From assembly GCA_050015075.1 (NCBI GenBank), contig JBEKCB010000018.1:20461-84460 (forward strand): a DNA stretch of 64,000 nucleotides, given 5' to 3'. This document shows, piece after piece, positions 4,186 to 58,988 of the stretch. The first letter of the stretch is position 1. Each line of letters starts with the position of its first letter. The notes beneath the pieces are model-generated. The model ran no database searches, was not told the DNA's origin, and worked only from the letters and a program-made list of their open reading frames with translations. This DNA is from Candidatus Brocadiia bacterium. GTDB taxonomy: Bacteria; Planctomycetota; Brocadiia; CAIUPP01. The translations under genes and the position numbers were made by a program.

Positions 4186-4258
4186 TGGCGGGGGTGGGAG
4201 TCGAACCCACACTCTTGTCCTTATGAAGAACCTGCTTTATCCCTTAAGCTACCCCGCC
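4186..4258 (-). tRNA. tRNA-Met(CAT): tRNA-Met, anticodon CAT (elongator-type or tRNA-Ile2 precursor; CCA not encoded)
   Basis: 73 nt: GGCGGGG-TA-GCTT..AAGC-A-GGTTC-TTCATAA-GGACA-AGAGT-GTGGG-TTCGACT-CCCAC-CCCCGCC-A. It has a 7-bp acceptor stem, a GTTCGA T-loop and a CAT anticodon, and lacks the initiator-type 3xG:C anticodon stem. Confidence 0.8.
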
Positions 4259-4477: not shown

Positions 4478-5767
4478 ATGGAAGACTCCAGCATGAATCC
4501 CAATGTTCGCCGCGCGCAAAGCCGGACGTCCCTTGCGGCGTTCAACTGGAGCGTCGGGCTGCGGAGTTTCTACGACACCACCTGCGGCGGCGGGCTGTTC
4601 ATCTTTGTCTCGTTCGCGCTCTCGCTGGGCCTGGCCAAGGAGCGCGTCGGGTTGATCACCTCGGTCGTGAGCTTTGCCTGCCTGCTGCAGGTCGTGAGCA
4701 TTGCGGTGGTCAATTTCATTCCGGACAAGAAGCGGTTCATCCTCTCGGTCGGGCTCTGCGAGCCGCTGGCGCTGATCGTCACGGCGCTGGCGACGCCGTT
4801 TCTGCCGGCGGGCCTGCGGCTCTGGGCGCTGGGCGCGGGAATTTTTCTGGCGGGCGCCGCCTATCACCTGACGCGTCCCCTGGCGGACGATTGGCTGGTC
4901 TCGAGCATCCCGGTGGCCATCCGGCCGAGCTACCTCGGCGGGCGGTTCCGGGTGATCAGCGCATGCACGATCGTGGCGATGCTGCTGGCGGGCTGCGTGG
5001 CTGAGCGGATCGCGAAGTCCGATTCGTTCGGCCTCGGCCTGGCGCTGGCCGGCGGCGGCGTGTTCGGGGTGCTCTCCATTCTGGCGCTGCGGCGCGCGCC
5101 GATGCCGGTCCGGTCGGCGCTCGCGCGCGTCGCCTGGAAGGATGCGCGCGAGGCGCTCCGCGTCAAACCGTTCCGCAATTACCTGGCCGGGTTCTTCGTC
5201 TACAACATTCCGTTCCTGGCGGCCATCCCGTATTACCAGGTGTTCAATCTCAAAGTGCTTCAGATGAAGGAGAGCCGGATCGCGTACGTGGCCATCGGCT
5301 ATCTGGGCATGAAGCTGCTCGTGACGGGATTCTGCGCGCGGGTCATTCGCCGGTACGGGATCCGGCGGGTGCTCTGGGCGTGCGGGCCGCTGTACGCGCT
5401 GTTCTTCCTGGCGTACCTCTTCTGCACGCCGGAACGCACCTGGCCGCTCTATGCGGCGTGGGCGCTGGTCGGCATTGCGGACGCGGCCTTCTCGATCGCC
5501 GCGGCGATGGCGCTTTACGATTGCGTGCCGGAGACTCCCGGGCGGCCGGTCTATTTCGCCATCGCCAACGTGCTGTCCATCGGCATTTTCTGCATCGGCG
5601 GCGTCGTGGCGGTCCCGATCCTGGAAGCTCTCCAGGGCGCGGCCGTTCAGATCGGCCCGCTCACGCTCGGGCAGTTCCACTGCCTCTACGCGATCTGCTT
5701 CATCCTGATGATCCCCGCCACGTGCGGCGCGGCGTTTTTCCCTGCACGTGAAAGGTCCCTCGAGTAG
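4478..5767 (+). CDS. MFS transporter
   Basis: 429 aa with 12 predicted TM helices in an MFS-like arrangement. Confidence 0.7.
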   Translation: MEDSSMNPNVRRAQSRTSLAAFNWSVGLRSFYDTTCGGGLFIFVSFALSLGLAKERVGLITSVVSFACLLQVVSIAVVNFIPDKKRFILSVGLCEPLALIVTALATPFLPAGLRLWALGAGIFLAGAAYHLTRPLADDWLVSSIPVAIRPSYLGGRFRVISACTIVAMLLAGCVAERIAKSDSFGLGLALAGGGVFGVLSILALRRAPMPVRSALARVAWKDAREALRVKPFRNYLAGFFVYNIPFLAAIPYYQVFNLKVLQMKESRIAYVAIGYLGMKLLVTGFCARVIRRYGIRRVLWACGPLYALFFLAYLFCTPERTWPLYAAWALVGIADAAFSIAAAMALYDCVPETPGRPVYFAIANVLSIGIFCIGGVVAVPILEALQGAAVQIGPLTLGQFHCLYAICFILMIPATCGAAFFPARERSLE

Positions 5768-5783
5768 CCGGACACGTGTACGA

Positions 5784-5936
5784 ACCACCGAGACACCAAA
5801 GCACCAAGAACGCCAAATGATAATGCAACCACGGAACACACGGAAGACACTGAAACTGTTTAGCAAAGCCTTTCGGTGTGCTCCGTGTATTCCGTGGTGG
5901 AAGCCGTTGTCTCTTTGTGCCTTGGTGTCTTGGCGG
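5784..5936. repeat. nested palindromic repeat element (outer CACCAAG-unit arms, inner CCACGGAA/ACACGGA-unit arms) between convergent genes
   Basis: gagacaccaaagcaccaag...ccacggaacacacggaagacac || gtgtgctccgtgtattccgtgg...cttggtgtcttggcgg. The same inner module occurs at 29462-29612 and the same outer module at 40874-41047. Confidence 0.8.
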
Positions 5937-5948
5937 TAAATGCGGCGC

Positions 5949-8491: not shown

Positions 8492-8640
8492 CTCGCCCGT
8501 TTGACGTCGCGACCCTGCTCGCGATATGCTGCGCGAGCCGTCGGAACGGATCGTCCTCGTCTTCGAACTCGTCCTCGTCCTCGGCTGTTCGTAACGGCCG
8601 TTCGAGGACGGGGACGAGGACGACGACGAGGACGCTTGGC
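8492..8640 (+). repeat. promoter-hairpin repeat cassette, copy 1 (sigma70-like TTGACG-N17-ATATGC followed by a long GTC/GAC-rich imperfect hairpin)
   Basis: cccgtttgacgtcgcgaccctgctcgcgatatgctgcgc, then an imperfect palindrome of about 85 bp built from CGTCCT/AGGACG units. It is nearly identical to 9266-9412. Confidence 0.75.
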
Positions 8641-9265: not shown

Positions 9266-9412
9266 TCCGCCCGTTTGACGTCGCGACCCTGCGCGCGATA
9301 TGCTGCGCCATTTGTTGGAATGGATCGTCCTCGTCCTCGAACTCGTCCTCGGCCGTTTTCTAACGGCCGTTCGAGGACGAGGACGAGGACGGGGACGAGG
9401 ACGATTGGCTTA
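9266..9412 (+). repeat. promoter-hairpin repeat cassette, copy 2
   Basis: cccgtttgacgtcgcgaccctgcgcgcgatatgctgcgc plus a GTC-rich hairpin, immediately upstream of the aldolase gene. Confidence 0.75.
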
Positions 9413-10342: not shown

Positions 10343-10425
10343 AATCGTCCTCGTCCTCGCTCTCGTCCTCGTCCTCGAACGGTAGGTCATAACGGCCGAG
10401 GCGGAGGACGACGACGAGGACGATC
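10343..10425. repeat. GTC/GAC-rich hairpin (hairpin-only copy of the cassette; probable terminator between the aldolase gene and murJ)
   Basis: cgtcctcgtcctcgctctcgtcctcgtcctcgaacgg...ccgaggcggaggacgacgacgaggacg. Confidence 0.7.
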
Positions 10426-10446: not shown

Positions 10447-12045
10447 ATGCCTGAAAAACACGACATTCTTCCCGGCATGCTCAAGACCGGCGCGGGGACA
10501 TTGGCCAGCCGGATTCTGGGGCTTCTGCGCGAGGTGTTCACCACGCGCTTTTTCGGCGCCGGCCCCGCGTTCGATATGTTCGTCATCGCCTTCCGCGTGC
10601 CGAACCTCTTTCGTGCGCTCTTCGGCGAGGGCGCGTTGAACGCGTCGTTCATCCCGGTCTTCACGCGCGAGGGGCTCGATCCGGCGGGCGATGCGCGGCG
10701 GCTGCTCAACGCCGTCATGACGGCGCTCGCCGCGCTGCTGATGGGCATCACCTGCCTGGGCTGGCTGATCTGCGGCATCGCCCTGCTCTCCGGCCGCCTG
10801 CCGCCCAACGGCAAGCTGTTCTGCCTGCTGCTGATGATCCTGCTGCCGTACCTTCCGCTCATCTGCCTCACCGCGCTGCAGGGCGCCGCGCTGAACGTGA
10901 AAGGGCATTTCCTCCGGCCCGCGTTCGCGCCGACGATCATGAACATCTGCTGGATCGGCGCGATTGTCCTGCTGCGGTTTTGGCACGTCAAGGACTTGAG
11001 CCTGGGCGCCACCGCGCTCGCGGTCGGAGTGCTGATTTCGGGCGGGCTCCAGTTCGCCTATCAGGCGATGATGCTGCGCCGCTGCAAGCTCCATTTTCGG
11101 CTGGTCTGGGACCTGGCGCATCCGGGCCTGCGGCAGATCGTTCACCTGACGCTCCCGGTGGCGCTGGGAGTGGGCGTCATCCAGGTCAACACGTTCGTGG
11201 ATTCGCTCTTTGCGCAGTTCTGCGTGCGGGATGCGGGCGCCAACAGCGCGCTGTGGTATGGCAACAACCTGATGCAATTTCCGCTGGGCGTGCTGGGTAC
11301 CGCGCTGGCGACGGCGGTGCTTCCGGCGCTGGCGCACCACGAGGCCGTGGGCGACCGCAAGTCGTTCGTGGACGCCATCGGCCTGTCGCTCCGGACGGCG
11401 TTCTTCGTCTCGCTTCCCTGCGTCGCCGCCACGGTCGCGCTCAGCGCGCCGATCGTGCGGGTGCTCTATGAGGGCGGGCGGTTTACGCCTGAATCCACGG
11501 CGCGGACGGCGGCGGTCTTCCTCTGTTTCACCGCGGGCCTGTGGGCGTTCTGCGCCATCCAGGTGCTGGCGCGCGCGTTCTACGCTCAGCAGGACGTGCG
11601 CGCGCCCAGGCGGATTGCGGTCATGATGGTCGGCGCAAACTTCGTCCTGAACGCGATTTTGGTCTGGCCGATGCGCGAGGCGGGACTGGCGCTGTCGAGC
11701 AGCATCTGCGGGGTCGGGAACATGGTGCTGCTGTGGATACACCTGAGAAAGAAGATCGGTCCGATCGGCGGGCGCGCTGTGGCGGCCAGCGCGGTGAAGT
11801 CCGCCGTCGCCGCCGCGATCGCAGGGCTCGCCGGGTACGGCGCATTTTACGGAACTCTGCGAGCGGCCGGCGGGCCGGCGATGACCTCGCCGCGGGCCTG
11901 GCCTCAACTCCTGGCGCTCTCGTGCGGCCTGGCCGCCGTGTGCGCGGTCTTCCTGCTGGCGGCGTGGGCGCTGCGCGCGACGGAACTGAGCGAGTTCCTC
12001 CAGTCCCTCCGCCGGAAGAAAGACCGGGCGCCTTCGGACGGCTGA
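10447..12045 (+). CDS. murJ: lipid II flippase MurJ/MviN
   Basis: 532 aa with 14 TM helices and a MurJ N-terminal signature (LASRILGLLREV...FGAGPAFDMFVIAFRVPNLFRALFGEGALNASFIPVF). Confidence 0.85.
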   Translation: MPEKHDILPGMLKTGAGTLASRILGLLREVFTTRFFGAGPAFDMFVIAFRVPNLFRALFGEGALNASFIPVFTREGLDPAGDARRLLNAVMTALAALLMGITCLGWLICGIALLSGRLPPNGKLFCLLLMILLPYLPLICLTALQGAALNVKGHFLRPAFAPTIMNICWIGAIVLLRFWHVKDLSLGATALAVGVLISGGLQFAYQAMMLRRCKLHFRLVWDLAHPGLRQIVHLTLPVALGVGVIQVNTFVDSLFAQFCVRDAGANSALWYGNNLMQFPLGVLGTALATAVLPALAHHEAVGDRKSFVDAIGLSLRTAFFVSLPCVAATVALSAPIVRVLYEGGRFTPESTARTAAVFLCFTAGLWAFCAIQVLARAFYAQQDVRAPRRIAVMMVGANFVLNAILVWPMREAGLALSSSICGVGNMVLLWIHLRKKIGPIGGRAVAASAVKSAVAAAIAGLAGYGAFYGTLRAAGGPAMTSPRAWPQLLALSCGLAAVCAVFLLAAWALRATELSEFLQSLRRKKDRAPSDG

Positions 12046-19594: not shown

Positions 19595-20170
19595 ATGAAA
19601 AACCGATGCGAATGGGGCGTCAGCGATCCGCTGTATGTGAAGTACCACGACCGCGAATGGGGAACGCCTCTGCATGACGATCACGGGCTTTTCGAGTTCC
19701 TGGTTCTGGAGGGCGCGCAAGCGGGGCTGAGCTGGCTGACCATCCTCCGGAAACGCGACAACTATCGCAAGGCGTTCGACCGGTTCGATCCGCAGAAGGT
19801 CGCGCGCTATTCGGCGGCGGATGTCCGGCGCCTTCGTGCCGACCCCGGCATTGTGCGCAATCGCCTGAAGATCGAATCGGCCATTCGAAACGCGCGGTGC
19901 GCGCTCGCCGCCGCTGACGAGTTCGGCTCCTTCGACTCCTTCATCTGGCGCTACGTGGACCACCAGCCTCGGCAGAATGCCTGGCGCACGCTGGCCGAAC
20001 TGCCGGCCAGAACCGCGCTCTCCGACAGGATGAGTAAAGAGTTGAAGAAGCGGGGATTCAGCTTCGCGGGCTCGACGATCTGCTACGCCTTCATGCAGGC
20101 GGTCGGGATGGTGAACGACCACGTCGTGGGCTGCTTCCGGCATGAGGAACTGAAGAAGATGGCCCGATAA
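19595..20170 (+). CDS. tag: DNA-3-methyladenine glycosylase I
   Basis: MKNRCEWGVSDPLYVKYHDREWGTPLHDD...GSTICYAFMQAVGMVNDH, a Tag signature. Confidence 0.85.
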   Translation: MKNRCEWGVSDPLYVKYHDREWGTPLHDDHGLFEFLVLEGAQAGLSWLTILRKRDNYRKAFDRFDPQKVARYSAADVRRLRADPGIVRNRLKIESAIRNARCALAAADEFGSFDSFIWRYVDHQPRQNAWRTLAELPARTALSDRMSKELKKRGFSFAGSTICYAFMQAVGMVNDHVVGCFRHEELKKMAR

Positions 20171-20248
20171 GGCAAAACGAGCATTTCCCTTTCGTACAAT
20201 TCCTGGCACAGCAACGATTAATGATTCGCCCGCACAGCTAGCGGATTA

Positions 20249-21061
20249 TTACGTCGAAGAAGGGTTAGTTTCGATTTCCGTCTCTACTATCGCATCGGGT
20301 ATTCCAACCTTATCAATCCAATCACGAAGACGTGCGGCGTTCTCAGGCGTTAGCTCATTCCAGTCCTTGAGATGAACATGTAGGACGACAGACATAGCTA
20401 CCGCGTGTTTCTGCTGAACGCACACATCACCTTTCACTTGTGTTGCGACTGCCGCCATCTGTTCAATGTTTGGAGTGGGAGTTTGCGCCGGTACTTCAAC
20501 TTCATCGAGGTTCCCCTTTGTGAGCGTACCGGCGTCATCTGCCAACACTAGCCCGGTGTACAGGATGAAATCGATGAGTCGGTCCAAAGCGGATGAATCG
20601 CCCTCGGTCGCCCCCGCCTTGATTGCTAGTGATTTCTTCATCTCGGACCTGGACAACGAAGGACGCAAAGCAAAGTTCTGAACTACGACCTGTCCATACC
20701 AGCACCGAGCTACGAGCCTACGAAGATAAGATTTCGCCTTCTCCTCATCCCACGCCGCTTCGCGAGCAAACCGAACAGCCTCTTGGCTGGGAACATAATA
20801 CCCGTACTTGGGCGATACCAGAATCTGGGACTCCGACAAGAAATTGTTGTTGGCACTAACCGTAGACTGCCCCAAACCAGTAGCGCTTGCCACATCGCTG
20901 TACTTGACCGGAGACTCTCCGCCATTCGAGGCAACGACATAACCCTTTATTACTCTGACAAGTACGTCCGCTCCAGAAAGGGGAAGCGCTTTCTCTGCTG
21001 TAAGCTTCGGCAGTTTTGTCTTTATTTGTTGCTCGACTTTTTGTTCCTCATCTTTACTCAT
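20249..21061 (-). CDS. hypothetical protein with a predicted N-terminal (winged) HTH; last gene of the low-GC island operon
   Basis: 270 aa with an HTH-like YSDVASATGLGQSTVSANNNFL. The GC is much lower than the host genome. It overlaps the upstream NTPase gene by ATGA. Confidence 0.5.
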   Translation of the reverse strand: MSKDEEQKVEQQIKTKLPKLTAEKALPLSGADVLVRVIKGYVVASNGGESPVKYSDVASATGLGQSTVSANNNFLSESQILVSPKYGYYVPSQEAVRFAREAAWDEEKAKSYLRRLVARCWYGQVVVQNFALRPSLSRSEMKKSLAIKAGATEGDSSALDRLIDFILYTGLVLADDAGTLTKGNLDEVEVPAQTPTPNIEQMAAVATQVKGDVCVQQKHAVAMSVVLHVHLKDWNELTPENAARLRDWIDKVGIPDAIVETEIETNPSST

Positions 21062-22422
21062 GACGCGCCTCCAATCTTTAGGGCCAAGGCATAAAGGTAA
21101 GGAATCTCAAACGAATCAGATTGATTGACCGCCTTCCTGTCTTTTACGGCCACAGCACCAATCCTGACAAGATCGGATATGACCAACTTGGCGTCTAGAT
21201 CAGCCTTACCAAGAGCAGCAGATAGTTGCTTCCGGTTGAAAGTCCGCGAGTTGTGCCCGCTCAACTGTTTATATGTTTGGCTGTAGTTTGGAAAAACCTG
21301 AAGGAAATCGTTCAGCTTATCCGCAGCGGTAAGATCTATTGCCTGTCGAATTGCCTCAGCGGAAATCAAACACGTCGGCTTGTTTACACCCTGGCGGTTG
21401 AAAGTTAACTGCGATTTCTGAGCCTCGATGCAGAAATTTACAAAATCGCGCGGAAGTGCATCGCCATTTCCGTCCTTGAAGCGTTCATACAGCACTTCAA
21501 ACCCGCCCGCGTAAGGCTCTTCCCAATCGAAAACTTCATCGAGCCACTTTTGGGCAACGGGATAGATGATGTCGTCATTATGCTCTGGATGTAAGACAGC
21601 GAGACGGTGGGCGAGAAGAATCCCTATGTCCTCCTTAGTCCACTTCAAAGTCAATTTCAACGCGCTGAAATGGTCTTTGTTGACATAGCCGAGTTCGTCA
21701 TAAATGTCAGACCGGAAAAACAGCTTAAACTTCAATCTCCTGAGTCGTATCAAGTCGCTGACAGCCGTCATTAGGCTGCTGAGGAGCTCGGCGATTTCAT
21801 CTTCCTTACTGCCGTTCAGCCGGACCTCGTCCAGACTGTCGAGGCAAATCCACAAGTCTGCTCCTTGCTCATCCAACCATGAACTTGCCAGATGGATAAC
21901 CTGATCGCATTCCGTCATCGCAAGGGGTATCTTCGGCGGTATCTCTGTAGTCACATACTCACCGATCCCGACCTTGAACTTCAAAGTCCTCAACGACTGC
22001 CACGGCGTAGGAACTATCCCGACCAGTCCCCAACGCACTAAGAATCGCTCGAACGTCTTTCTTGTCGTCTCGGCCAGACGGTCTTCATTGATGAGAAGCC
22101 CCGCGATGAGTGACGCGATATGAAAACGCCATAACCCAACCTTCGATGATGAAACAGCCGGATGCAAAGTGGCCCAGTGTTGTTGAAGTTGCGGCTCTTC
22201 ACCGAGCCAAAGGTTCGGTTTCTTGAAAATCGGGATCTTGTCTTCCCACTCGCGCAACATTTGGTAAATGGCGCTTTTACCGGCGCCCTTTGCTCCGAGA
22301 ACGAGGTAAATCCTATCGGAGCATGTCAAATCAAAAGCAACCGACTTATAGAAATAGTGCTTCAGATTGGTATCATGCTGCGCAGCACCGAAGCCAAAAT
22401 CAATCTTTTCGAGTGCGTTCAT
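21058..22422 (-). CDS. P-loop NTPase with a NACHT-like Walker B motif (STAND-like ATPase), hypothetical
   Basis: 454 aa. Walker A LVLGAKGAGKSAIYQ at about residue 45; Walker B LWICLDSLDEV (hhhhD[GAS]hDE) at about residue 195. Low GC. ATGA overlaps with both neighbouring genes. Confidence 0.6.
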   Translation of the reverse strand: MNALEKIDFGFGAAQHDTNLKHYFYKSVAFDLTCSDRIYLVLGAKGAGKSAIYQMLREWEDKIPIFKKPNLWLGEEPQLQQHWATLHPAVSSSKVGLWRFHIASLIAGLLINEDRLAETTRKTFERFLVRWGLVGIVPTPWQSLRTLKFKVGIGEYVTTEIPPKIPLAMTECDQVIHLASSWLDEQGADLWICLDSLDEVRLNGSKEDEIAELLSSLMTAVSDLIRLRRLKFKLFFRSDIYDELGYVNKDHFSALKLTLKWTKEDIGILLAHRLAVLHPEHNDDIIYPVAQKWLDEVFDWEEPYAGGFEVLYERFKDGNGDALPRDFVNFCIEAQKSQLTFNRQGVNKPTCLISAEAIRQAIDLTAADKLNDFLQVFPNYSQTYKQLSGHNSRTFNRKQLSAALGKADLDAKLVISDLVRIGAVAVKDRKAVNQSDSFEIPYLYALALKIGGAS

Positions 22423-22634
22423 TGATGTTCAAGGCCATCCGCAGGGTAAACGCTTCTGACAAGACGTCCACGTAATACGTTGACCGTTCGCATCCGTTGC
22501 CTTGGAGTATACCAACGTGAGGCGTTTCGCGCCAGCACGCTGTGAGACCCTTTAGCCTCTCGTTTAACGGACCCGCCGACGCGAAGGAGCACAGCGCGAA
22601 CGTGACGTGTCTTGGCGGACGGCCAATCGCTCAT
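22419..22634 (-). CDS. hicA: HicA-like mRNA interferase toxin (putative)
   Basis: 71 aa, basic, with a GSH motif (KREAKGSHSVLAR). Translationally coupled downstream of the HicB-like gene. The assignment is tentative. Confidence 0.4.
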   Translation of the reverse strand: MSDWPSAKTRHVRAVLLRVGGSVKREAKGSHSVLARNASRWYTPRQRMRTVNVLRGRLVRSVYPADGLEHQ

Positions 22635-22831
22635 ACCGGCATCGCGAAAAGTTCGTCCAGTTCCGGAATCGCTTCACCGTGCTCCAGGCGGTCAGCGATG
22701 ACACGCAGAGCCAATGCCTCGGCTTTGCAAACCGCCTCTTTCCGGGTCTTGCCATACGCCATAACTCCCGGCAGATCCGGCACTTCGGCGATCCAGCGGC
22801 CATCCGTTTCGCGCTCGATTTCAATCTTCAT
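22631..22831 (-). CDS. hicB: HicB-like antitoxin (UPF0150 family)
   Basis: MKIEIERETDGRWIAEVPDLPGVMAYGKTRKEAVCKAEALALRVIADRLEHGE, typical of HicB/UPF0150. Confidence 0.6.
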   Translation of the reverse strand: MKIEIERETDGRWIAEVPDLPGVMAYGKTRKEAVCKAEALALRVIADRLEHGEAIPELDELFAMPV

Positions 22832-22890
22832 CCAGGTAGCCTCCGTCGCATACGATATCACACGCCTCCGAACTGAGCAAGTTTTTCCCG

Positions 22891-25227
22891 TCACTCTTGC
22901 GTGTAAATCACAATCCGGTCATGGATGAGCAGCACGATGTCGGGCTTGCCGCCGGTGACGGCGCCGATGGCGAACTCGCGCGGTTCCGACGAGGCCGCCG
23001 GCGCCGGACCCATGCGGCCGCCGACGAACGCCTTGGCTTCGAAGACCGGCCAGGCGAGCACGCGCTCGATGCGCGGCTCTTCTTTCCGCCACGTCAGCAG
23101 TTCCATCAACTGCTTCGTCCCCTCGGTGACGATGATCTGCGGCCGGCCGTCGCCGCGGAGGTCGCCGACCTCGACGTTCTCCAGCCGCCCGTTGCGCACC
23201 GGCGATTCGTACGAGGCGATCGAGCGCAGCGCCACGCGCGGCAGGCCCGGGCGCAGGATGTGGAAATCGTCCTGCCCGGCCAGGATGACGGCCGGCTTGC
23301 CGCTTCCATCCAGGTCCGCGACGTGCAGCCGCTCGAGGTTGACCGCGCCGGTCTGGAGTTTGTCCGCGACTTCGTACACGCCGGTCTTGTTCGCCCGGAG
23401 CACGGTCAGGCAATGGTTCGCCGCGTCCGCGAGGAGGATGTCCGTGGTCGAACTTCCGTTGAGCCGGACAGCGGAGGCCGCGACGATCTGGCTGGTCGGC
23501 GCCACGCCGTTGAACTGCTCGACGATCTCGATCCGGTCCTTGTCGTCGAGCCGCAGCGCGCGCGCGAAGCTCTTCGCGGCGACGAGGATCGTCGGCTTGC
23601 CGTCACCCTTGAGGTCGGCGATCGAGACGGCCCGCCGCGTGACGCCCTGCACGAGCCCCTTGCCGTAATCCGGCCCGCGCGAGACGTCAACGAATTGCGC
23701 GTCGGCCGTCTGCTTGAAGATGCGCATCTCCTGGTACGGCGTGAAGAGCAGGATGTCCGGCCGGCCGTCCTGGTTCGCGTCGGCCACGAGCAGGCCGTCG
23801 GGATCGGTGCGCGCGTCCTCGATCGGGATGCGCAGGGACTCGACGAAGGTCGCGCCCGGCCCGATGGTCAGCACGCGAATGGACTTGTCGCGTGCCTGGG
23901 AGGAGACGTAGAGGATCTCGCGTTTGCCGTCGGCGAAGAGGTCGGCGACGCACATGCAGGTCGGCTTGCCGACGATCGGCAGCGACCGCGGGAAGGTCAG
24001 GCGGCCCTGCGCGTCGAGGCGCATCAGGCCCAGCATCGGTTCATCGGGGCTGAGGACGAGCACCGCCGGGGCGCCGTCCACTTCGAGCACGGCGACGTCC
24101 GTCACTCCCTGCAGGCACGGGAAGGCCGCCTGCCGGTCCCACTGGCCGGACTGGTTCTGGCGGAAGAGTTCGATCTCGGCCGCGTCGGGGTCAGCGACGA
24201 CGATGTCCATCCGTCTCGGATCGGTCAACGGGCCGAAAGCGAGCGGGTGCGCGCGCCGCGAGCCGGTCCCGCGCAGCGCGTAACGCTCGAACGGCCCGTC
24301 GAGGAGCACGCCCGGATCCGCCGGCTCCGTGCCGACCTTGTAAACCACCAGCCGGCCCTGTGACCGCTCAATCGCGACCAGTTCGGTGCAGCCGTCCTTG
24401 TCGAGGTCGCCGAGGGCTACGCTGCTCATCGGCGGCGCCTTGCAGCGCACTTCGGGGCCGAGCCGCCCTTCGGCGTTCTGGAACCGGAAGCAGAACGGCG
24501 CGGCCTCGTCGCTGCAGAAGTAGAGCAGGTCCTTCCGGCCGTTGCCGTCGAAATCGGCGATGGCGATGCCGACGGCGCCCTCGGGCAGGCCCGATTCCTT
24601 GATCGGCGCTTCGAGCTGGCCGGCGGCGTTCTGGTGGAAGAAGTAGGTGCCGTCCGTGCCGAGGAGGACCAGGTCGTTCCGGCCGCTCTTGCGCAGGTCG
24701 CCGATCGCCAGGGCGTTCATCTGCGTGGAGCCGTCGGCGATGTCAAACGTCCGGCGCGGTCCCCATTGCCCGTTCTTGTCCTGGTAGACCACGACGAGTT
24801 CGCGCGGATCGCCGTAGTACGCCATGTCCGTCCGGCCGTCGCCGTTGAGGTCGCCAAGCTCCAGGCTGTAGACGTGCTTCTCGGTCAGATAGGGCCGGCT
24901 GTCGAACTGCGCGTCGTTGGGAACCTCGTTCGGCTCCGCGTCCGCCGGCTTCGCCGCCGGGGCCTTCGCAGCGCCGGCCGTTTTCGGGCGCTGCAGCAGG
25001 CACTCGATCCGCGCGCGCGCGTTGTTCACCACGACGATGTCGGTCAGCCCGTCGCCGTTGACGTCGGCGAGGCGCAGGTTGCTCGTGTCCCAGTCGAGCT
25101 TGTACATCTCCATACCGGAGAAGCCGAAAGATTCCGTCGCCGGCTTCGTTTCGCCGGACGCCGGCAATGAGAGCACGCCCAGGCATAACGCGGCGAAGAC
25201 CAGACGAATCACCGGTGGATTTCGCAT
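22891..25227 (-). CDS. secreted FG-GAP / VCBS repeat protein (integrin-alpha-like beta-propeller repeats)
   Basis: Signal peptide MRNPPVIRLVFAALCLGVLSLPASG, followed by many (N/D)xDGxxD(I/L)(V/L) FG-GAP repeats. Confidence 0.75.
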   Translation of the reverse strand: MRNPPVIRLVFAALCLGVLSLPASGETKPATESFGFSGMEMYKLDWDTSNLRLADVNGDGLTDIVVVNNARARIECLLQRPKTAGAAKAPAAKPADAEPNEVPNDAQFDSRPYLTEKHVYSLELGDLNGDGRTDMAYYGDPRELVVVYQDKNGQWGPRRTFDIADGSTQMNALAIGDLRKSGRNDLVLLGTDGTYFFHQNAAGQLEAPIKESGLPEGAVGIAIADFDGNGRKDLLYFCSDEAAPFCFRFQNAEGRLGPEVRCKAPPMSSVALGDLDKDGCTELVAIERSQGRLVVYKVGTEPADPGVLLDGPFERYALRGTGSRRAHPLAFGPLTDPRRMDIVVADPDAAEIELFRQNQSGQWDRQAAFPCLQGVTDVAVLEVDGAPAVLVLSPDEPMLGLMRLDAQGRLTFPRSLPIVGKPTCMCVADLFADGKREILYVSSQARDKSIRVLTIGPGATFVESLRIPIEDARTDPDGLLVADANQDGRPDILLFTPYQEMRIFKQTADAQFVDVSRGPDYGKGLVQGVTRRAVSIADLKGDGKPTILVAAKSFARALRLDDKDRIEIVEQFNGVAPTSQIVAASAVRLNGSSTTDILLADAANHCLTVLRANKTGVYEVADKLQTGAVNLERLHVADLDGSGKPAVILAGQDDFHILRPGLPRVALRSIASYESPVRNGRLENVEVGDLRGDGRPQIIVTEGTKQLMELLTWRKEEPRIERVLAWPVFEAKAFVGGRMGPAPAASSEPREFAIGAVTGGKPDIVLLIHDRIVIYTQE

Positions 25228-29461: not shown

Positions 29462-29612
29462 TTACCACTAAGTTACCAAGGCTCAAAGAGACAACGGCTT
29501 CCACCACGGAATACACGGAGCACACCGAATGACTTTCCTGAACAGCTTCAGTGTCTTCCGTGTGTTCCGTGGTTGCAATATCAGTTGGCGTTTTTGACGC
29601 CTTGGTGGTTCA
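29462..29612. repeat. nested palindromic repeat element inserted between def and fmt (same inner module as 5784-5936)
   Basis: ccaccacggaatacacggagcacaccgaa...ttcagtgtcttccgtgtgttccgtgg, flanked by ccaaggc / gccttggtgg outer arms. Confidence 0.8.
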
Positions 29613-37826: not shown

Positions 37827-38903
37827 ATGAGTTACTTCCGCCGCAACATCCAGCGCATGACCGGCTACGTGCCGGGCGAGCAACCGCAGGAGAAAGGGTT
37901 TATCAAGCTCAACACGAACGAGTCGCCGTATCCGCCATCGCGGAAGGTGCTCCGCGCGGTCCGGGCGGCGGTGAACGCGGACGTGCGGCTCTACCCCGAC
38001 CCGATGGCCAACGCGCTCCGGCGCAGGGCGGCGGAACTCTTCGGGACTCGGCCGGAATGCGTGCTGGCGGGGAACGGGTCGGATGAGCTGCTCACGATCG
38101 TTGTGCGCGCGTTCGCCGGGCCGAAGCGCGTCGTGGCGTATCCGACGCCGACCTATTCGCTCTATCCGACGCTCGCCGCCATCGAGGACGCGCGCACGCG
38201 CCCGGTCCCGTACCCGCGCGATTTCTCGCTGCCCGCCGGGCTTTTCCGCAAGGGCGCGGCGGTGACGATCGTGGCGAACCCGAACAGCCCGACCGGCACC
38301 GCGGCGTTGCCGAAAGAACTCGCGCGGCTGGCGCGCGCGGTCAGCGGCGTGCTGGTGATTGACGAGGCGTACGTGGATTTCGCGGACCTCGACTGCATGG
38401 AACTCGCGAGACGCCACAGCAACGTGATCGTGCTGCGGACGTTCTCGAAGTCGTTTTCGCTCTGCGGCCTCCGGCTCGGCCTGGCCGTCGCCGACGAGAA
38501 GCTCATCGAGGGCATGGCCAAGGTCAAGGACAGCTACAACGTCAACCGGCTGGCGATCGTGGCGGGCGCGGCGGCGCTCGACGACATCGGCTCGATGCGG
38601 GCGAACGCGGAGAAAATCCGCCGGACGCGCGCGCGGCTGACGGCGGCGCTGGAATCGCGCGGCTGGTTCGTTTATCCTTCGCAGAGCAACTTCATCTTCG
38701 CGCGTGTGCCGCCGCCGCTCTCGGCGCGCCGGATTTACCAGGAGCTGAAGCGCCGGAAAATCCTCGTCCGCTATTTCGACGCGCCCGGTCTCGACGACGG
38801 GCTGCGCATCACCATCGGCAGCGACCGCGAGATCAGCGCATTGATCCGCGGCCTGCGAAGCATCGAGGAACAAAGAATTTTAACCACAGATGGACACAGA
38901 TGA
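37827..38903 (+). CDS. hisC: histidinol-phosphate aminotransferase
   Basis: MSYFRRNIQRMTGYVPGEQ...KLNTNESPY, and TFSKSFSLCGLRLG containing the PLP-binding lysine. Confidence 0.85.
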   Translation: MSYFRRNIQRMTGYVPGEQPQEKGFIKLNTNESPYPPSRKVLRAVRAAVNADVRLYPDPMANALRRRAAELFGTRPECVLAGNGSDELLTIVVRAFAGPKRVVAYPTPTYSLYPTLAAIEDARTRPVPYPRDFSLPAGLFRKGAAVTIVANPNSPTGTAALPKELARLARAVSGVLVIDEAYVDFADLDCMELARRHSNVIVLRTFSKSFSLCGLRLGLAVADEKLIEGMAKVKDSYNVNRLAIVAGAAALDDIGSMRANAEKIRRTRARLTAALESRGWFVYPSQSNFIFARVPPPLSARRIYQELKRRKILVRYFDAPGLDDGLRITIGSDREISALIRGLRSIEEQRILTTDGHR

Positions 38904-38962
38904 ACACAGATACGCAATAACTTTCTTGTCCACATCTGTGCTCATCTGTGTCCATCTGTGGT
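38884..38962. repeat. palindrome with CACAGATG(A/G)A tandem-unit arms (28-bp arms, 1 mismatch) overlapping the hisC stop codon
   Basis: ccacagatggacacagatgaacacagat-[loop]-atctgtgctcatctgtgtccatctgtgg. The same module occurs at 40921-41000. Confidence 0.8.
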
Positions 38963-38992
38963 TTCAAAATGAATTAAACTGAGGAGATGAAC

Positions 38993-39595: not shown

Positions 39596-39675
39596 CTCGT
39601 AATCGTAATCGCCGTTTTACCTACAGCCGGACGAACGGACGAGTACGATTAGGAGCAAGATTACGATTACGAAAA
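39596..39675. repeat. palindrome with CGTAAT tandem-unit arms between hisB and alr
   Basis: actcgtaatcgtaatcgcc ... gattacgattacgaaaagt. Confidence 0.65.
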
Positions 39676-39724
39676 GTAGGCGCTCCTGGTTTTCTCGGCT
39701 CTTAGGTTTTGTCGTTGGAACCCC

Positions 39725-40864
39725 ATGCCTCGCCCCACGATCGTGGAAATTGATCTCTCCGCCATCCGCGACAACCTGCGCGCGATACGGGCGCTGGTTG
39801 GGCCGGCGGTGGAGATCATCGGCATGGTCAAGGCCGACGCGTACGGCCATGGCGCGGCGGCGGTCGGCCGGACGCTGGCGGCGGAGGACGTGAAGCGGTT
39901 CGGCGTGGCGCTGGTCGAGGAAGGCGCGGCGCTGCGCGCAGCGGGGATCCCCGGAGAAGTGCTCGTCCTCGGCGCGCTGCTGCCGGAGGACGCGCCGGAG
40001 ATCGTCGAGAATGGGTTCGAGGCGGCGCTGAGCGACCTGGATTTCGCCCGCCGGCTGGACGAAGTTTCCCGCCGGCGGCACGGTCCGCCGGTCGGCGTCC
40101 ACGTGAAGCTCGATACCGGCATGGGCCGGTTTGGATTCCCGCTGAAGCGGGCGCTGGACGTCATCTGCGAACTGGCCGGCCTGCGCGGTCTGAGGCTGGT
40201 CGGCGCGATGACGCATTTTCCCTCGGCGGATGAAGCCGGGCCGCCGGGCCGCGGGAGCGACGGCGTGGAGTTCACGCGCGGGCAGATCGGCGCGTTCCTG
40301 AAAATCCGCGAGGCGGTCGCGGCGGCGGGAATCCGGCTGCCGCTCTGGCACGCGGCGAATTCGGCGGGCATCCTGCTGCATCCCGAGTCGCGCCTGGACG
40401 CGGTGCGGCCCGGGCTGGCGCTCTACGGCGGGTTCCCGGCGGCGCAGGTGCCGCCTCCGGCGAAGCTGCGCCAGGCGATGACGCTCAAGACACGGATCGT
40501 GCTCGTCCGCGAGTTCCCGGCCGGCGCGACGCTGGGCTACGGGCGGACCTTCCGGACCGCACGCGCCTCGCGCATCGCGGCGCTGCCGATCGGCTATGCG
40601 GACGGATTCAGCCGCGCGCACTCGAACAAGGGGCAGGCGCTGGTCCGCGGGCGGCGCGCGCCGATCGTCGGGCGGGTGTCCATGGACACGGTGCTGGTGG
40701 ACGTGACCGACGTGGCGGGCGCGCAAGCCGGCGACGAGGCGGTGCTCTACGGCCGGCAGGGCGCGGCGGAGATCTCCATCGTCGAAGCGGCCGAGACGCT
40801 CGGCACGATCCCCTACGAACTGATGACCTCGCTCACAGCCCGCGTGCCGAGGGTCTGGCGCTAA
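39725..40864 (+). CDS. alr: alanine racemase
   Basis: PLP site VKADAYGHG, and a C-terminal RVSMD. Confidence 0.85.
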   Translation: MPRPTIVEIDLSAIRDNLRAIRALVGPAVEIIGMVKADAYGHGAAAVGRTLAAEDVKRFGVALVEEGAALRAAGIPGEVLVLGALLPEDAPEIVENGFEAALSDLDFARRLDEVSRRRHGPPVGVHVKLDTGMGRFGFPLKRALDVICELAGLRGLRLVGAMTHFPSADEAGPPGRGSDGVEFTRGQIGAFLKIREAVAAAGIRLPLWHAANSAGILLHPESRLDAVRPGLALYGGFPAAQVPPPAKLRQAMTLKTRIVLVREFPAGATLGYGRTFRTARASRIAALPIGYADGFSRAHSNKGQALVRGRRAPIVGRVSMDTVLVDVTDVAGAQAGDEAVLYGRQGAAEISIVEAAETLGTIPYELMTSLTARVPRVWR

Positions 40865-40873
40865 ACGGTTCTA

Positions 40874-41047
40874 TTAACCACCAAGACACCAAGGCACCAA
40901 GGACGACGGCAGTTTTCGGAACCACAGATGAACACAGATGAGCACAGATACGAATTTCGTTTTGGCCCCATCTGTGTTTATCTGTGTTCATCTGTGGTTC
41001 CTAAATCCGTCATCGTCCTTGGTGCCTTGGCGTCTTGGTGGTTAAGT
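40874..41047. repeat. roughly 175-bp near-perfect nested palindrome (outer CACCAAGG-unit arms, inner CACAGATGA-unit arms) between the convergent alr and ugd genes
   Basis: ttaaccaccaagacaccaaggcaccaaggacgacgg..ggaaccacagatgaacacagatgagcacagat | atctgtgtttatctgtgttcatctgtggttcc..ccgtcatcgtccttggtgccttggcgtcttggtggttaa. Confidence 0.85.
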
Positions 41048-41049
41048 TC

Positions 41050-42408
41050 TCAGTCCGCCGCAGCCGCTCCGATCCGGTAGGCGTGGAAGCCGATCTTCGC
41101 CAGCGCGTCGTGGTCCAGGAAATTCCAGCCGTCGAAGAGGAAGGCGGGCTTCTCCATCGCGTCGAAGATGCGGCGGAAGTCCAGGTCGCGGTACTCCGGC
41201 CAGGCGGTCAGCAGCGCGATGGCATGCGCGCCGCGCGCGGCTTCGTAGGGGTCGGCGGTGAAACTGCACTCGGCGGCGGCTTTCAGGTCCTCCTGCGCGC
41301 TCTCGAGCGCGCGCGGGTCGCTGATCGCCAGCCGGGCGCGCTCGTCGAGCAGCAGCTTGCAGACCGCCAGCGCCGGCGAATCGCGCGTGTCGCTCGTGCC
41401 GGGCTTGAAAGCGAAGCCGAGGACGGCGATGCGTTTCCCGGCCAGCGTGTTGAACATCGTGTGGACCATCGTCTTGACGAAGCGCTCCTTCTGGTCTTCG
41501 TTCATCCGGAGCACCTCTTCCCAGTAGCGCGCCGCCTCGGGCAGGCCGTTGGATTCGCAGAGGTAGGCGAGGTGGAGGATGTCTTTGCGGAAGCAGGAGC
41601 CGCCGAAGCCCAGTCCGGCGCGGAGGAACTCGGCCCCGATGCGGTGGTCCATGCCGACGGCGCGGCTGACCTCGGCGATGTTGGCGCCGGTGCGCTCGCA
41701 GAGGGCGGCGACGGCGTTGATCGAGCTGACGCGCTGGGCGAGCATGGCGTTGGCGGCCAGCTTGGCCAGTTCACTCGACCAGAGGCCGGTGGTAAGGATG
41801 CGGTCGCGCGGGACCCAGTGCGCGTAGATGTCCACGAGGTCCTGCTGGGCCTGGCGCCCGGTCGGCGTCGAGTGGGCGCCGATCAGCACGCGGTCGGGGT
41901 GCTCCAGGTCGCTCAGCGCGCTGCCCTCGGCGAGGAACTCGGGGTTGGAGACGACCTCGAAATGGACGCGGCCGCCGCTGCCGGAGAGGATGGCCTCCAT
42001 CGCCTCGGCGGTGCGCACCGGCAGGGTGCTCTTCTCGACGACGATTTTCGGGCGCGTGCTGCGGCGGGCGATGAGGCGGGCGGTCTGTTCCCAGTACTGC
42101 AGGTCGGCGGCTCGGCCGGCTCCCTGGCCGAAGGTCTTCGTCGGCGTGTTGACGCTCACGAAGACGATGTCCGCGCGGTCAATGCGGTCCTCGACGTCGG
42201 TGTAGAAGAAGAGGTTGCGGCCGCGCGCGAGCCGGATCGTCTCGAGCAGCCCCGGCTCGAAGATCGGCAGCCGGTCGGTCTGCCAGGCCGCGATGCGCTC
42301 CGCGTTGATGTCCACGATCTCCACGCGGTGCTCGGGGCAGTGCTTGGCGATCACGGCCATCGTCGGGCCGCCGACGTATCCGGCGCCGATGCACAGGATA
42401 TTCTTCAT
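41050..42408 (-). CDS. ugd: UDP-glucose 6-dehydrogenase
   Basis: MKNILCIGAGYVGGPT, the catalytic GGSCFRKD, and a full UDPG_MGDP_dh architecture. Confidence 0.85.
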   Translation of the reverse strand: MKNILCIGAGYVGGPTMAVIAKHCPEHRVEIVDINAERIAAWQTDRLPIFEPGLLETIRLARGRNLFFYTDVEDRIDRADIVFVSVNTPTKTFGQGAGRAADLQYWEQTARLIARRSTRPKIVVEKSTLPVRTAEAMEAILSGSGGRVHFEVVSNPEFLAEGSALSDLEHPDRVLIGAHSTPTGRQAQQDLVDIYAHWVPRDRILTTGLWSSELAKLAANAMLAQRVSSINAVAALCERTGANIAEVSRAVGMDHRIGAEFLRAGLGFGGSCFRKDILHLAYLCESNGLPEAARYWEEVLRMNEDQKERFVKTMVHTMFNTLAGKRIAVLGFAFKPGTSDTRDSPALAVCKLLLDERARLAISDPRALESAQEDLKAAAECSFTADPYEAARGAHAIALLTAWPEYRDLDFRRIFDAMEKPAFLFDGWNFLDHDALAKIGFHAYRIGAAAAD

Positions 42409-57539: not shown

Positions 57540-57995
57540 ATGAGCAAGAACGGCGAGGCCGCCGTGGCGATGTTCCTGCAGGGGTACAACTGCGCGCAAT
57601 CCGTGCTGGTGAGCTGCGGGCAAGAGTACGGCCTGCCGCGCGAGACGGCGGTGCGGGTGGCGCAGGCGTTCGGCGGCGGCATCGGCCGCAGCGGCAACGT
57701 CTGCGGCGCGGCGACCGGCGCGCTGATGACCGTCGGGCTGAAATGCTCCGTGAAGGACGCGACGGACCTCGCGGCGAAAGCGGAGGCCGGCCGCATCGCG
57801 CAGGAATTCCTCGCGCGCTTCAAGGCGCGCAGCGGATCGCTCCTGTGCCGCGACATCATCGGCTGCGACCTGTCCACGGCGGAAGGCTACAAGTACGCCG
57901 TCGAGAGCGGCCGCCACCAGACCATCTGCCCCAAGGCCATCCGCGACGCGATCGAGATTATCGAAGATCTCTTGAACCCTGTGGAGAAACGTTAG
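57540..57995 (+). CDS. C_GCAxxG_C_C family redox-active protein
   Basis: GYNCAQSVL and VCGAATGA motifs. Confidence 0.7.
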   Translation: MSKNGEAAVAMFLQGYNCAQSVLVSCGQEYGLPRETAVRVAQAFGGGIGRSGNVCGAATGALMTVGLKCSVKDATDLAAKAEAGRIAQEFLARFKARSGSLLCRDIIGCDLSTAEGYKYAVESGRHQTICPKAIRDAIEIIEDLLNPVEKR

Positions 57996-58092
57996 GACAT
58001 TGGGAAATTGGGAGATTAGGAGATTGGGACATCTGAAGAGCGCTGCGACAGCCTCCTAATCTCCCAATCTCCTAATCACCCAATCTCCTAAC
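57996..58092. repeat. palindrome with TTGGGAGA/TTAGGAGA tandem-unit arms between the C_GCAxxG gene and arsM; a half-copy also at 58897-58935
   Basis: ggacattgggaaattgggagattaggagattgggac ... cctcctaatctcccaatctcctaatcacccaatctcc. Confidence 0.7.
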
Positions 58093-58105: not shown

Positions 58106-58900
58106 ATGCGACGAAATGACGCGACTCACACGATGGTGAAGAAGGCTTATGCGGCCGTTGCCCGGCGGCAGTCCTCCCGCTGCGGCAGGCGCGCGGCCTC
58201 GTGCTGCGACAAGTCCTGCGACGTGCCGGACCAGCCGGTCCCGGAAGCGGAACTGGGCCTCTCGTGCGGCAACCCGGTGGCCTTCTCGCACCTGAAGAAA
58301 GGCGACACCGTCCTCGACCTGGGCAGCGGCGCGGGGCGCGACGTGTTCCTGGCCGCGCAGAAAGTCGGCTCGAAGGGAAAGGCCATCGGCGTGGACATGA
58401 CGCCGGAGATGCTCCGGCTCGCGCGCCGCAACGCGGAGAAATTCCGCACAGCGGCGCGGCTCGACAATGTGGAGTTCCGCAGGGGGCTCATCGAAAAGCT
58501 GCCGGTCGCCGACGCGGCCGTGGACGTCGTGATCTCCAACTGCGTCATCAACCTCTCGACGGACAAGCCGCAGGTGTTCCGCGAGGTGCACCGCGTGTTG
58601 AAGCCCGGCGGGCGGATGATCGTCTCGGACATCGTCCTCGAACGCGCGCTGCCGGCGAAGCTGAAGGCGGACGAACAGCTCTACAGCGCCTGCATCGCCG
58701 GCGCGCTGCTGCGGCGCGACTACCTGGACGCGATCCGCGCGGCCGGCTTCGCGAGCGTGAAGATCCTCTCCGACCGCCGGCGCAACAAGGCTGACATCGG
58801 CGGCGACCCGATCACCGCCGACGTCGCCTCCGATCTCAAAAACGCCGCGTCGTCCGTCACCGTTATGGCCGTGAAACGTGCAGCGTGCTGCTGTCATTAG
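58106..58900 (+). CDS. arsM: arsenite S-adenosylmethionine methyltransferase
   Basis: SAM-MTase motif VLDLGSGAGRD, conserved Cys pairs (SCCD...C, and the C-terminal CCCH), and ArsM-like length. Confidence 0.75.
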   Translation: MRRNDATHTMVKKAYAAVARRQSSRCGRRAASCCDKSCDVPDQPVPEAELGLSCGNPVAFSHLKKGDTVLDLGSGAGRDVFLAAQKVGSKGKAIGVDMTPEMLRLARRNAEKFRTAARLDNVEFRRGLIEKLPVADAAVDVVISNCVINLSTDKPQVFREVHRVLKPGGRMIVSDIVLERALPAKLKADEQLYSACIAGALLRRDYLDAIRAAGFASVKILSDRRRNKADIGGDPITADVASDLKNAASSVTVMAVKRAACCCH

Positions 58901-58988
58901 GAAATCGGGACATTGGGAAATTGGGAGATTGGGGCTCTCTGAAAAGCGTAAGCCGTTCCCATGCGGCTCAACCGATGATGGCTGCCAG

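Follow-up and report, generated by a model that had tools for sequence, protein, structure and literature searches.

The 64-kb window analysed here (64,000 nucleotides of a Candidatus Brocadiia genome, assembly GCA_050015075.1, contig JBEKCB010000018.1, positions 20,461 to 84,460) carries the convergent genes alr and ugd, and the gap between them is filled almost entirely by a large inverted repeat. The alr gene ends with TAA at 40862-40864, and the ugd stop is read as its complement, TCA, at 41050-41052. A repeat search placed the inverted repeat at 40874-41045 (172 bp), starting 9 nt past the alr stop and ending 4 nt short of the ugd stop complement, with arms of 76 nt each (40874-40949 and 40970-41045) that are 89% complementary and separated by a 20-nt spacer. 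The original prediction, made from the letters of the window, had described a nested palindrome between alr and ugd that could form a stem of more than 60 bp; the palindrome is real, although it ends at 41045 and not at 41047. It probably consists of two nested members, neither with an open reading frame (ORF), of a class of small intergenic hairpin cassettes whose arms are arrays of tandem units of 6-10 nt. Its inner module matches the repeat arrays on either side of a small nuclease gene in bacteria of many phyla, which suggests a copy, without the gene, of a poorly described and probably mobile element, and not a purpose-built terminator.

The palindrome is modular. Its ends read TTAACC...GGTTAA, and an outer hairpin with three CACCAAGG octamers per arm encloses an inner hairpin with three CACAGATG decamers per arm. 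The left arm of the outer module (40874-40919) is made up of TTAACC, three 8-nt units, CACCAAGA CACCAAGG CACCAAGG, at 40879, 40887 and 40895 (unit type CACCAAGA/G), and then the GACGACGG linker (ACGACGGCAGTTTTCGG). The left arm of the inner module (40920-40950) consists of AAC and the decamers CACAGATGAA CACAGATGAG CACAGATA, and is followed by an apical loop of 18 nt (CGAATTTCGTTTTGGCCC, 40951-40968) and by the right inner arm (40969-40999), CATCTGTGTT TATCTGTGTT CATCTGTG GTT. The right arm of the outer module (41000-41045) has the linker CCTAAATCCGTCATCGT, the units CCTTGGTG at 41017 and CCTTGGCG at 41025, TCTTGGTG, and GTTAA. The three tandem octamers that had been proposed for the outer arms are present, the third on the right being degenerate, whereas the inner units (CACAGATGNN, at 40923, 40933 and 40943 on the left and at 40969, 40979 and 40989 on the right), previously read as nonamers, are decamers with a period of 10 nt. 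Over the whole window the decamer pair pattern has 8 matches against a chance expectation of 0.02, and the octamer pair pattern has 10 against 0.5.

Fold calculations bore out the proposed hairpin. The RNA fold of 40860-41060 has a minimum free energy (MFE) of -127.7 kcal/mol, compared with -51.5 +/- 4.4 in shuffled sequences (z = -17.3), and the DNA fold reaches -75.3 against -22.2 (z = -15.9); no shuffle matched either value. The decamer hairpin corresponds to no Rfam family: Rfam at gathering thresholds returned only tRNA in the window (a single gene at 4186-4258 on the minus strand), and its E-value mode returned only sub-threshold miRNA-precursor hairpins. An intrinsic (Rho-independent) terminator is a short GC-rich stem-loop followed by a U-tract. 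No canonical or terminator-like site was found on either strand within 40500-41400, and the bases past the stem (GTTCTCAG on the plus strand, TAGAACCG on the minus strand) form no U-tract, in keeping with the earlier view that the element is more than a simple bidirectional terminator. The palindrome might still be a host-selected, immobile bidirectional transcription block, or a stabiliser of the 3' ends of the alr and ugd mRNAs, that grew in place, for example by slippage and quasi-palindrome correction. Its location exactly between two convergent stop codons and its very stable stem on both strands suit that explanation, while the lack of a U-tract and of a canonical terminator does not. 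The stem mismatches have no strand bias (G.U versus A.C, 3 versus 3, with three G.U pairs on each strand), which may be counted in favour of a host-selected structure, although it is uninformative on RNA-level selection.

Copies of the modules are dispersed through the window. The inner hairpin of CACAGATG decamers also stands by itself at 38882-38963, in the hisC-hisB gap, where its 30-nt arms are 97% complementary; its loop (38912-38933) differs from that of the alr-ugd inner hairpin, so the loop is not conserved. The hisC ORF (38860-38903) has a 1-nt indel relative to its counterparts in related genomes, skips the ancestral TAA and runs 7 codons into this hairpin, where it ends at the TGA of decamer 2 (38901-38903). 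Each of the three decamers contains a TGA, so that a stop is available in all three frames. Composite elements in which CACCAAGG-type outer arms surround an inner hairpin of CACGGAA units are found at 5783-5938 (copy A) and 29464-29609 (copy D). These two copies lie in opposite orientation and are ~88% identical from end to end, and because the identity extends through the loop and the asymmetric, non-palindromic linkers, the composite must have been copied as one unit, which speaks against a structure that arose in place under host selection. A further hairpin at 57992-58091 has arms of ~4.4 octamers, GGAGATTG / CAATCTCC, and belongs to a unit family that also brackets a PF05635 gene in relatives and fills the alr-ugd gap of one of them. 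The unit periods of these sister modules are 6, 8, 9 and 10 nt, and their arrays always come as complementary inverted pairs that stand singly, after stop codons or between operon genes.

Eight syntenic loci (designated by L numbers) were collected through Alr homologues with 82-91% protein identity, all with the order hisC-hisB-alr and then convergent ugd. A metagenome scan for the Alr of close relatives gave, among the matches listed, identities of 55% or less only. At the alr-ugd site the element has been gained, lost and replaced. The composite of the window (gap of 185 nt, MFE -127.7) recurs in decayed form in L204 (MFE -61.2); L284 has the outer octamer hairpin only (121 nt), L207 an unrelated CAATCTCC-octamer hairpin, and L205 and L285 degenerate relics, and the site is empty in L206 and L283, with gaps of 9 and 16 nt. 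The alr tree is too shallow for a firm order of these gains and losses. Solo outer octamer hairpins are also found elsewhere, at 5243-5310 of an unrelated low-GC contig (L161) and, among the relatives, at 19315-19399 of L207 and at 20567-20651 of L205; the last two, together with the outer-only state of the L284 site, argue for an outer hairpin that was already in place when the inner module came in at its apex. In both the window and L204 the composite has GTTCT/TTCT on either side. The automatic ugd call of L207 (10991-12595) is ~80 residues too long, with an ORF that continues past the octamer hairpin and on into alr; ugd actually stops near 11212.

Most lineages have the decamer hairpin of the hisC-hisB gap. 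The window has CACAGATG/CATCTGTG as its two arms, and L286, L284 and L207 have CACGGATG/CATCCGTG; a 13-nt GC-rich mini-hairpin insert is mirrored in both arms of L205, L207 and L284. The palindrome is inverted as a whole between L205 (9271-9377) and L207 (9250-9390), whose loops are mutual reverse complements. L283 retains the left arm only, L285 lacks the element, and L206 has a short relic, with no such hairpin within 21 kb. Synteny extends to two additional loci, L124 and L125, in which the hisC-hisB hairpin is missing, but these are too distant to decide the matter. That the relatives mostly carry some hairpin at the alr-ugd spot, and that both arms changed together at the hisC-hisB site, is what selection by the host would produce, yet the same explanation has to accommodate the empty alr-ugd site of L206 and L283 and the decayed element of L204.

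Beyond these relatives, a scan for CACAGATGNNCACAGATG with one genome per species gave at least 119 loci; by arithmetic, ~280 single matches to 16 specified bases would be expected by chance in the scanned collection. Opposed CACAGATG motifs no more than 260 nt apart, that is, a hairpin, were found in 53 of the loci listed. The hosts among the listed matches include Bryobacterales and other Acidobacteriota, Tepidisphaerae, Phycisphaerae and Gemmatales of the Planctomycetota, Verrucomicrobiota, Chromatiaceae, Usitatibacter, NC10, Chloroflexota, the cyanobacterium Scytonema, Abditibacteria and one deltaproteobacterial lineage. Gene-less copies have loops of 4 to ~150 nt, and in many of the listed decamer hairpins a second hairpin module of another unit type is nested in the loop. 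The cultured Thiodictyon syntrophicum has a decamer hairpin on a plasmid, in the gap between fmdB and fmdA, where it carries no annotation. Viral contigs also carry the motif, with opposed CACAGATG-like motifs of the hairpin type in at least 23 of 63 motif-bearing contigs and a GxxExxY gene in none of the 63. In a Phycisphaerae metagenome-assembled genome (MAG; L022, 4567-5165), inverted arrays of four GGAGTCA heptamers, 541 nt apart, enclose several CACAGATG hairpins; they form a third nesting level with a unit that resembles the short tandemly repeated repetitive (STRR) sequences of cyanobacteria. A Nitrospirota MAG contig (L032, 2655-3400) contains long T, A and G homopolymer runs that are probably an assembly artefact.

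Within the hairpins the units are conserved and the spacers variable, and the spacer bases are still complementary between the arms. Where positions vary, the two arms of a single element agree in 81-83% of cases, compared with 46-60% for arms taken from different elements. Template switching can correct quasi-palindromes arm to arm. The match within elements fits selection for pairing and fits such arm-to-arm correction as well; the alignments do not separate the two.

The inner arms are linked to a gene. In an Azospirillum MAG (L105), a member of NC10 (L040) and an acidobacterium (L082), CACAGATG arrays stand ~390 nt apart and enclose a single ORF of ~120 aa that belongs to the GxxExxY family (NCBIfam TIGR04256, E 1e-43; Pfam PF13366, PDDEXK_3, E 1e-41). 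A profile search of the collected loci added L044 and L031 with the same CACAGATG arms, and L098 with the decamer variant CACGAATG. GxxExxY genes bracketed by CACAGATG are known from at least six genomes (L082, L040, L105, L044, L031 and L279). The start codon of the gene is the ATG of a decamer in the 5' array, where cacagATGAACACAGAT translates as M-N-T-D, and the 3' array starts ~10 nt past the stop codon. Homologues number at least 7,549 at E <= 1e-10, and ~70 of the 120 best homologues in a large protein collection begin with M-[N/D/H]-T-D(-K), which is the decamer array read as codons. We define a GxxExxY hairpin cassette as inverted arrays of 2-4 CACAGATG-like decamers, within a palindrome that reaches 2-14 nt past them, with a PF13366/TIGR04256 ORF between the arms whose start codon lies in the 5' array. 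The arms at 40920-40999 and at 38882-38963 of the window match those of L082, L040, L105, L031, L044 and L279. Because its inner loop measures 18 nt and the window holds no GxxExxY ORF, the alr-ugd element is a gene-less relative of these cassettes and no full member.

Genes chosen without regard to the motif point the same way. The homologue P0138, situated between lexA and a polymerase IV-like gene, is bracketed exactly as in the CACAGATG cassettes. Among eight GxxExxY genes taken from plasmids, inverted CAC-type units occur on both sides in four (Bacteroides finegoldii, Bernardetia, Treponema and Sphingomonas); the gene of Gemmatirosa has a complete three-decamer hairpin adjacent to it, one has a direct repeat and two have nothing. 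GxxExxY cassettes or gene-less hairpins also lie inside housekeeping operons, between fabD and fabG on a Sphingomonas parapaucimobilis plasmid (L211), between lexA and the polymerase IV gene in L279, and between fmdB and fmdA in L287; they seem to be tolerated there, with the operon undisrupted.

The AlphaFold2 (AF2) model of the GxxExxY protein is confident (predicted local distance difference test score, pLDDT, 94). Its nearest solved folds are Cas4 SSO0001 (template modelling score, TM, 0.63), lambda exonuclease, MGME1 and AddB, and a D-E-K triad, D66, E76 and K78, is invariant among the homologues. The model, the nuclease-fold matches and the invariant triad make it plausible that GxxExxY is an active PD-(D/E)XK nuclease. 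A search of the PDB by sequence returned only one weak, irrelevant match. In a survey of the nuclease superfamily, PF13366 is listed with function unknown and with 'multiple transfers, mixed clades', that is, multiple horizontal transfers (PMC3424549).

The arms shared with a gene cassette are difficult to reconcile with host selection at alr-ugd, as are the occurrence of the same modules at unrelated sites, inside operons and in other phyla, and the presence of an identical 8-mer in many phyla, which is hard to square with an origin in place. We therefore regard a host-selected block or stabiliser as unlikely. Even less credit is due to an array of duplex-DNA sites for a host protein, whether nucleoid-associated, partition or regulatory, a suggestion that went with the original prediction. 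Three direct and three inverted units with a 10-bp period of about one helical turn, and conserved units with variable spacers, would suit such an array. The sister modules, however, have periods that vary between 6 and 10 nt; the spacer bases are complementary between the arms, which a protein site does not need; the elements are scattered singly after stop codons or inside operons, neither clustered nor near promoters; and the 5' array doubles as GxxExxY coding sequence. A binding array is accordingly very improbable, and no sign of a nucleoid or partition site was seen. DnaA boxes, CRP sites, PhoB-type boxes, integron attC sites, uptake sequences and Tn7/IS21-type ends were also set aside, since they mismatch in motif and differ in genomic context.

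A second gene family is carried between arrays of this kind, and it supports the cassette reading of the palindrome. In the hisB-alr gap of L283, L284 and L285, inverted octamer arrays, AATTTCCAAATCCGAATTTCCAATTTCCAAT and its complement, flank a PF05635 (23S_rRNA_IVP) gene for a four-helix-bundle protein. The corresponding gap of L286 contains the arms and no gene, that of L204 a decayed arm and a truncated pseudogene, and that of the window only the decayed right arm, beside a hexamer hairpin. On these sequences the site reads as a direct case of a cassette that lost its ORF, became a solo hairpin and then decayed. The AATTTCCAAATCCGAATTTCCAATTTCCAAT octamers share their unit family with the window hairpin at 57992-58091 and with the hairpin in the alr-ugd gap of L207. 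Inverted tandem 7-8-mers bracket six of seven unselected PF05635 genes from plasmids of cultured bacteria; around the gene of Nostoc punctiforme they are GTCGGAG x4 as an inverted pair, with a score of 29 against a shuffle maximum of 13. PF05635 is a family found in intervening sequences (IVS) of 23S rRNA and is related to Avd, the accessory protein of diversity-generating retroelements (PMC10053308; bioRxiv 10.1101/2024.02.27.582315). Array-bracketed PF05635 genes adjoin cas1 and cas2 on Anabaena cylindrica pANACY.01 (L290) and Pseudanabaena pPg_04 (L294), and on Chlorohelix and Gloeocapsa plasmids they lie between helicase/methylase or HEPN genes, in defence-island contexts.

Among described repeats, the first comparison is with repetitive extragenic palindromes (REPs), which are defined as imperfect palindromes of 20-40 bp with a GTAG or CGTC tetranucleotide at one end (PMC3733652). 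The alr-ugd element is 172 bp long and has no such tag. With REPs, bacterial interspersed mosaic elements (BIMEs) and the REP doublets (REPINs) served by REP-associated tyrosine transposases (RAYTs), it has in common that they are multi-copy extragenic palindromes, often in inverted pairs after genes. REPs are also thought to depend on a single-copy protein in trans, a point in which the window hairpins may be alike. The window hairpins differ in being 80-170 bp long, untagged and built from tandem units, and the gene that goes with such arms is something other than a Y1 HUH transposase.

[quoted passage not shown] They differ in arms of tandem 6-10-nt units, in nesting within each other's apical loops, in the recurrence of units across phyla, in the lack of a visible transposase parent, and in the gene enclosed, which is a 120-aa nuclease fold or an Avd-like bundle. 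A classical MITE would be an internally deleted insertion sequence (IS) moved by an IS transposase that recognises tandem sub-repeats in the terminal inverted repeats, as in cyanobacterial Nezha. The alr-ugd element has the terminal inverted repeats, a size within 50-500 bp, no coding capacity and multiple dispersed copies, and its filled and empty sites in related genomes follow the logic by which Nezha-type mobility has been judged (PMC3184786). No parent IS with the same terminal repeats and a transposase gene was found in the loci screened, where the ORFs between such arms are GxxExxY and PF05635 only; target-site duplication is not consistent, the inner-module loops differ between copies, and the same unit recurs across phyla. 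A classical MITE is thus improbable. The REP/MITE-like label given earlier holds for MITE-like behaviour (several copies in the window, variable site occupancy, many phyla) and fails for REP, with the tag missing and the length too great. The array search also settled whether the element is unique in its genome: it is not, with copies in the window, in relatives and in many phyla.

There is a structural likeness to the IVS of 23S rRNA, where an extended hairpin stands at the tip of an existing helix, with an optional small PF05635 ORF between the paired ends. The inner module sits at the apex of the outer hairpin much as IVS are inserted at a helix tip, and an IVS-type PF05635 ORF between paired ends is found in the hisB-alr octamer cassette of the relatives, though not in the alr-ugd palindrome. 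IVS sit in rRNA, whereas the window elements lie between protein genes, and the searchable literature has no description of an IVS with tandem-unit arms or with GxxExxY as partner. The STRR heptamers of heterocystous cyanobacteria are likewise intergenic tandem 7-mers, and in Nostoc punctiforme GTCGGAG x4 brackets PF05635 as an inverted pair; the window units differ in having 8 and 10 nt and in belonging to an uncultured planctomycete. STRR were reportedly described by Mazel et al. in 1990 as tandem repeats with a use in typing strains, and not as gene-cassette arms. Free-standing homing endonuclease genes are similar in that a small selfish nuclease gene lies between host genes, patchily distributed and horizontally transferred (PMC3424549 for the PF13366 transfers). 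They lack brackets of tandem-unit inverted repeats and leave no abundant gene-less hairpins, and target cleavage by GxxExxY is only putative. In sum, the element resembles a MITE or REPIN in behaviour and an rRNA intervening sequence in construction. It fails defining tests of a REP (tag and size), of an intrinsic terminator (U-tract) and of a classical MITE (transposase parent, with an ambiguous picture for target-site duplication).

How such elements might spread can be sketched. Only arms and an 18-nt loop remain of the alr-ugd element, so it cannot encode anything, and any movement must rely on a protein supplied from elsewhere. The elements would spread as selfish DNA with a preference for gene ends and for the loops of existing hairpins, where harm is small. 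The outer CACCAAGG hairpin would have settled in the few bases between the convergent stops, and the inner CACAGATG hairpin at the tip of the outer one. A GxxExxY nuclease, or an Avd-like four-helix-bundle protein for the octamer families, may recognise or act on the arrays or on the folded stem. In RNA the 5' and 3' arrays would form a stem comparable to IVS stems, which RNase III cleaves; such pairing would mask the cassette gene's start codon and provide RNase III with a substrate. Both the alr and the ugd transcripts would run into the ~76-bp stem and may end, be cut or be protected there, in which case termination, 3'-end protection, mRNA stabilisation or RNase III processing would be secondary by-products. 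Extending this to an undescribed class of minimal mobile elements, in which a ~120-aa GxxExxY or 23S_rRNA_IVP protein is carried between inverted tandem arrays with its start codon sequestered in the stem, inserts at gene ends or hairpin loops and leaves abundant gene-less hairpins, and which also accounts for rRNA intervening sequences and cyanobacterial STRR, is a tentative proposal that we hold with somewhat less than even confidence.

Several observations weigh against the interpretation of the palindrome as a pair of gene-less cassettes. There is no GxxExxY or PF05635 gene in the window (hmmsearch for GxxExxY), no GxxExxY gene in the 21-kb stretches of L204-L207, and no gene that goes with the outer CACCAAGG module. 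In 23 CACAGATG hairpins that lack the gene, the loops, of 70-330 nt, contain no detectable ORF remnant, the best E-value of 3.5 being that of shuffled controls; because of this, the PF05635 cassette is the one case in which it is shown whether an ORF was lost or gained. The copies do not agree in target-site duplication, and no matching flank was seen at L284 or around the copies labelled A, B and D. The hisC-hisB hairpin, moreover, is old, and its pairing has been kept in several lineages, which also fits host selection for structure.

Taken alone, the palindrome is a typical representative of its family, and it is the family and its link to a gene that deserve follow-up. GxxExxY and 23S_rRNA_IVP are very large families for which the searchable papers give no function beyond the relatedness of PF05635 to Avd. 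The link between arm and gene provides both with a concrete, directly testable nucleic-acid partner, would explain the identical 8-10-mers in hairpins of distant phyla, and offers one origin that gene-less hairpins between genes, the intervening sequences of rRNA and the STRR of cyanobacteria could share. No description of these arrays, or of inverted tandem-unit arrays bracketing GxxExxY or PF05635, was found in the searchable literature, outside of which lie many subscription papers, and database curators may have noticed them. The tandem-unit hairpins are unannotated in RefSeq records, alter gene ends (as with the hisC stop inside one), can mislead gene callers (as with ugd of L207) and probably shape the ends of operon transcripts.

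The remaining tandem-unit features of the window are further from the alr-ugd element. The hisB-alr gap (39596-39722) contains a (TCGTAA)n/(ACGATT)n hexamer hairpin at ~39596-39675 and the decayed right arm, GGCTCTTAGGTTTTGTCGTTGGAAC, of the PF05635 cassette. A half array of ATTGGGAA octamers on the plus strand at 58895-58933 has no clear partner arm, and the TAG stop (58898-58900) of a SAM-methyltransferase-like ORF (58106-58900) lies inside its first unit. A region at 20001-23000 has a GC content of 0.48-0.55, compared with ~0.66 in the rest of the window, and may be a foreign island. A hairpin with (TCGTCC)n/(CGAGGA)n hexamer arms at 8551-8634 has sister copies at 9323-9405 and 10344-10424. 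Two of these three hairpins are preceded by a sigma-70-like conserved sequence (TTGACGTCGCGACCCTGC.CGCGATATGCTGCGC, at 8500-8535 and 9276-9310), and would for that reason fall in 5' leaders.

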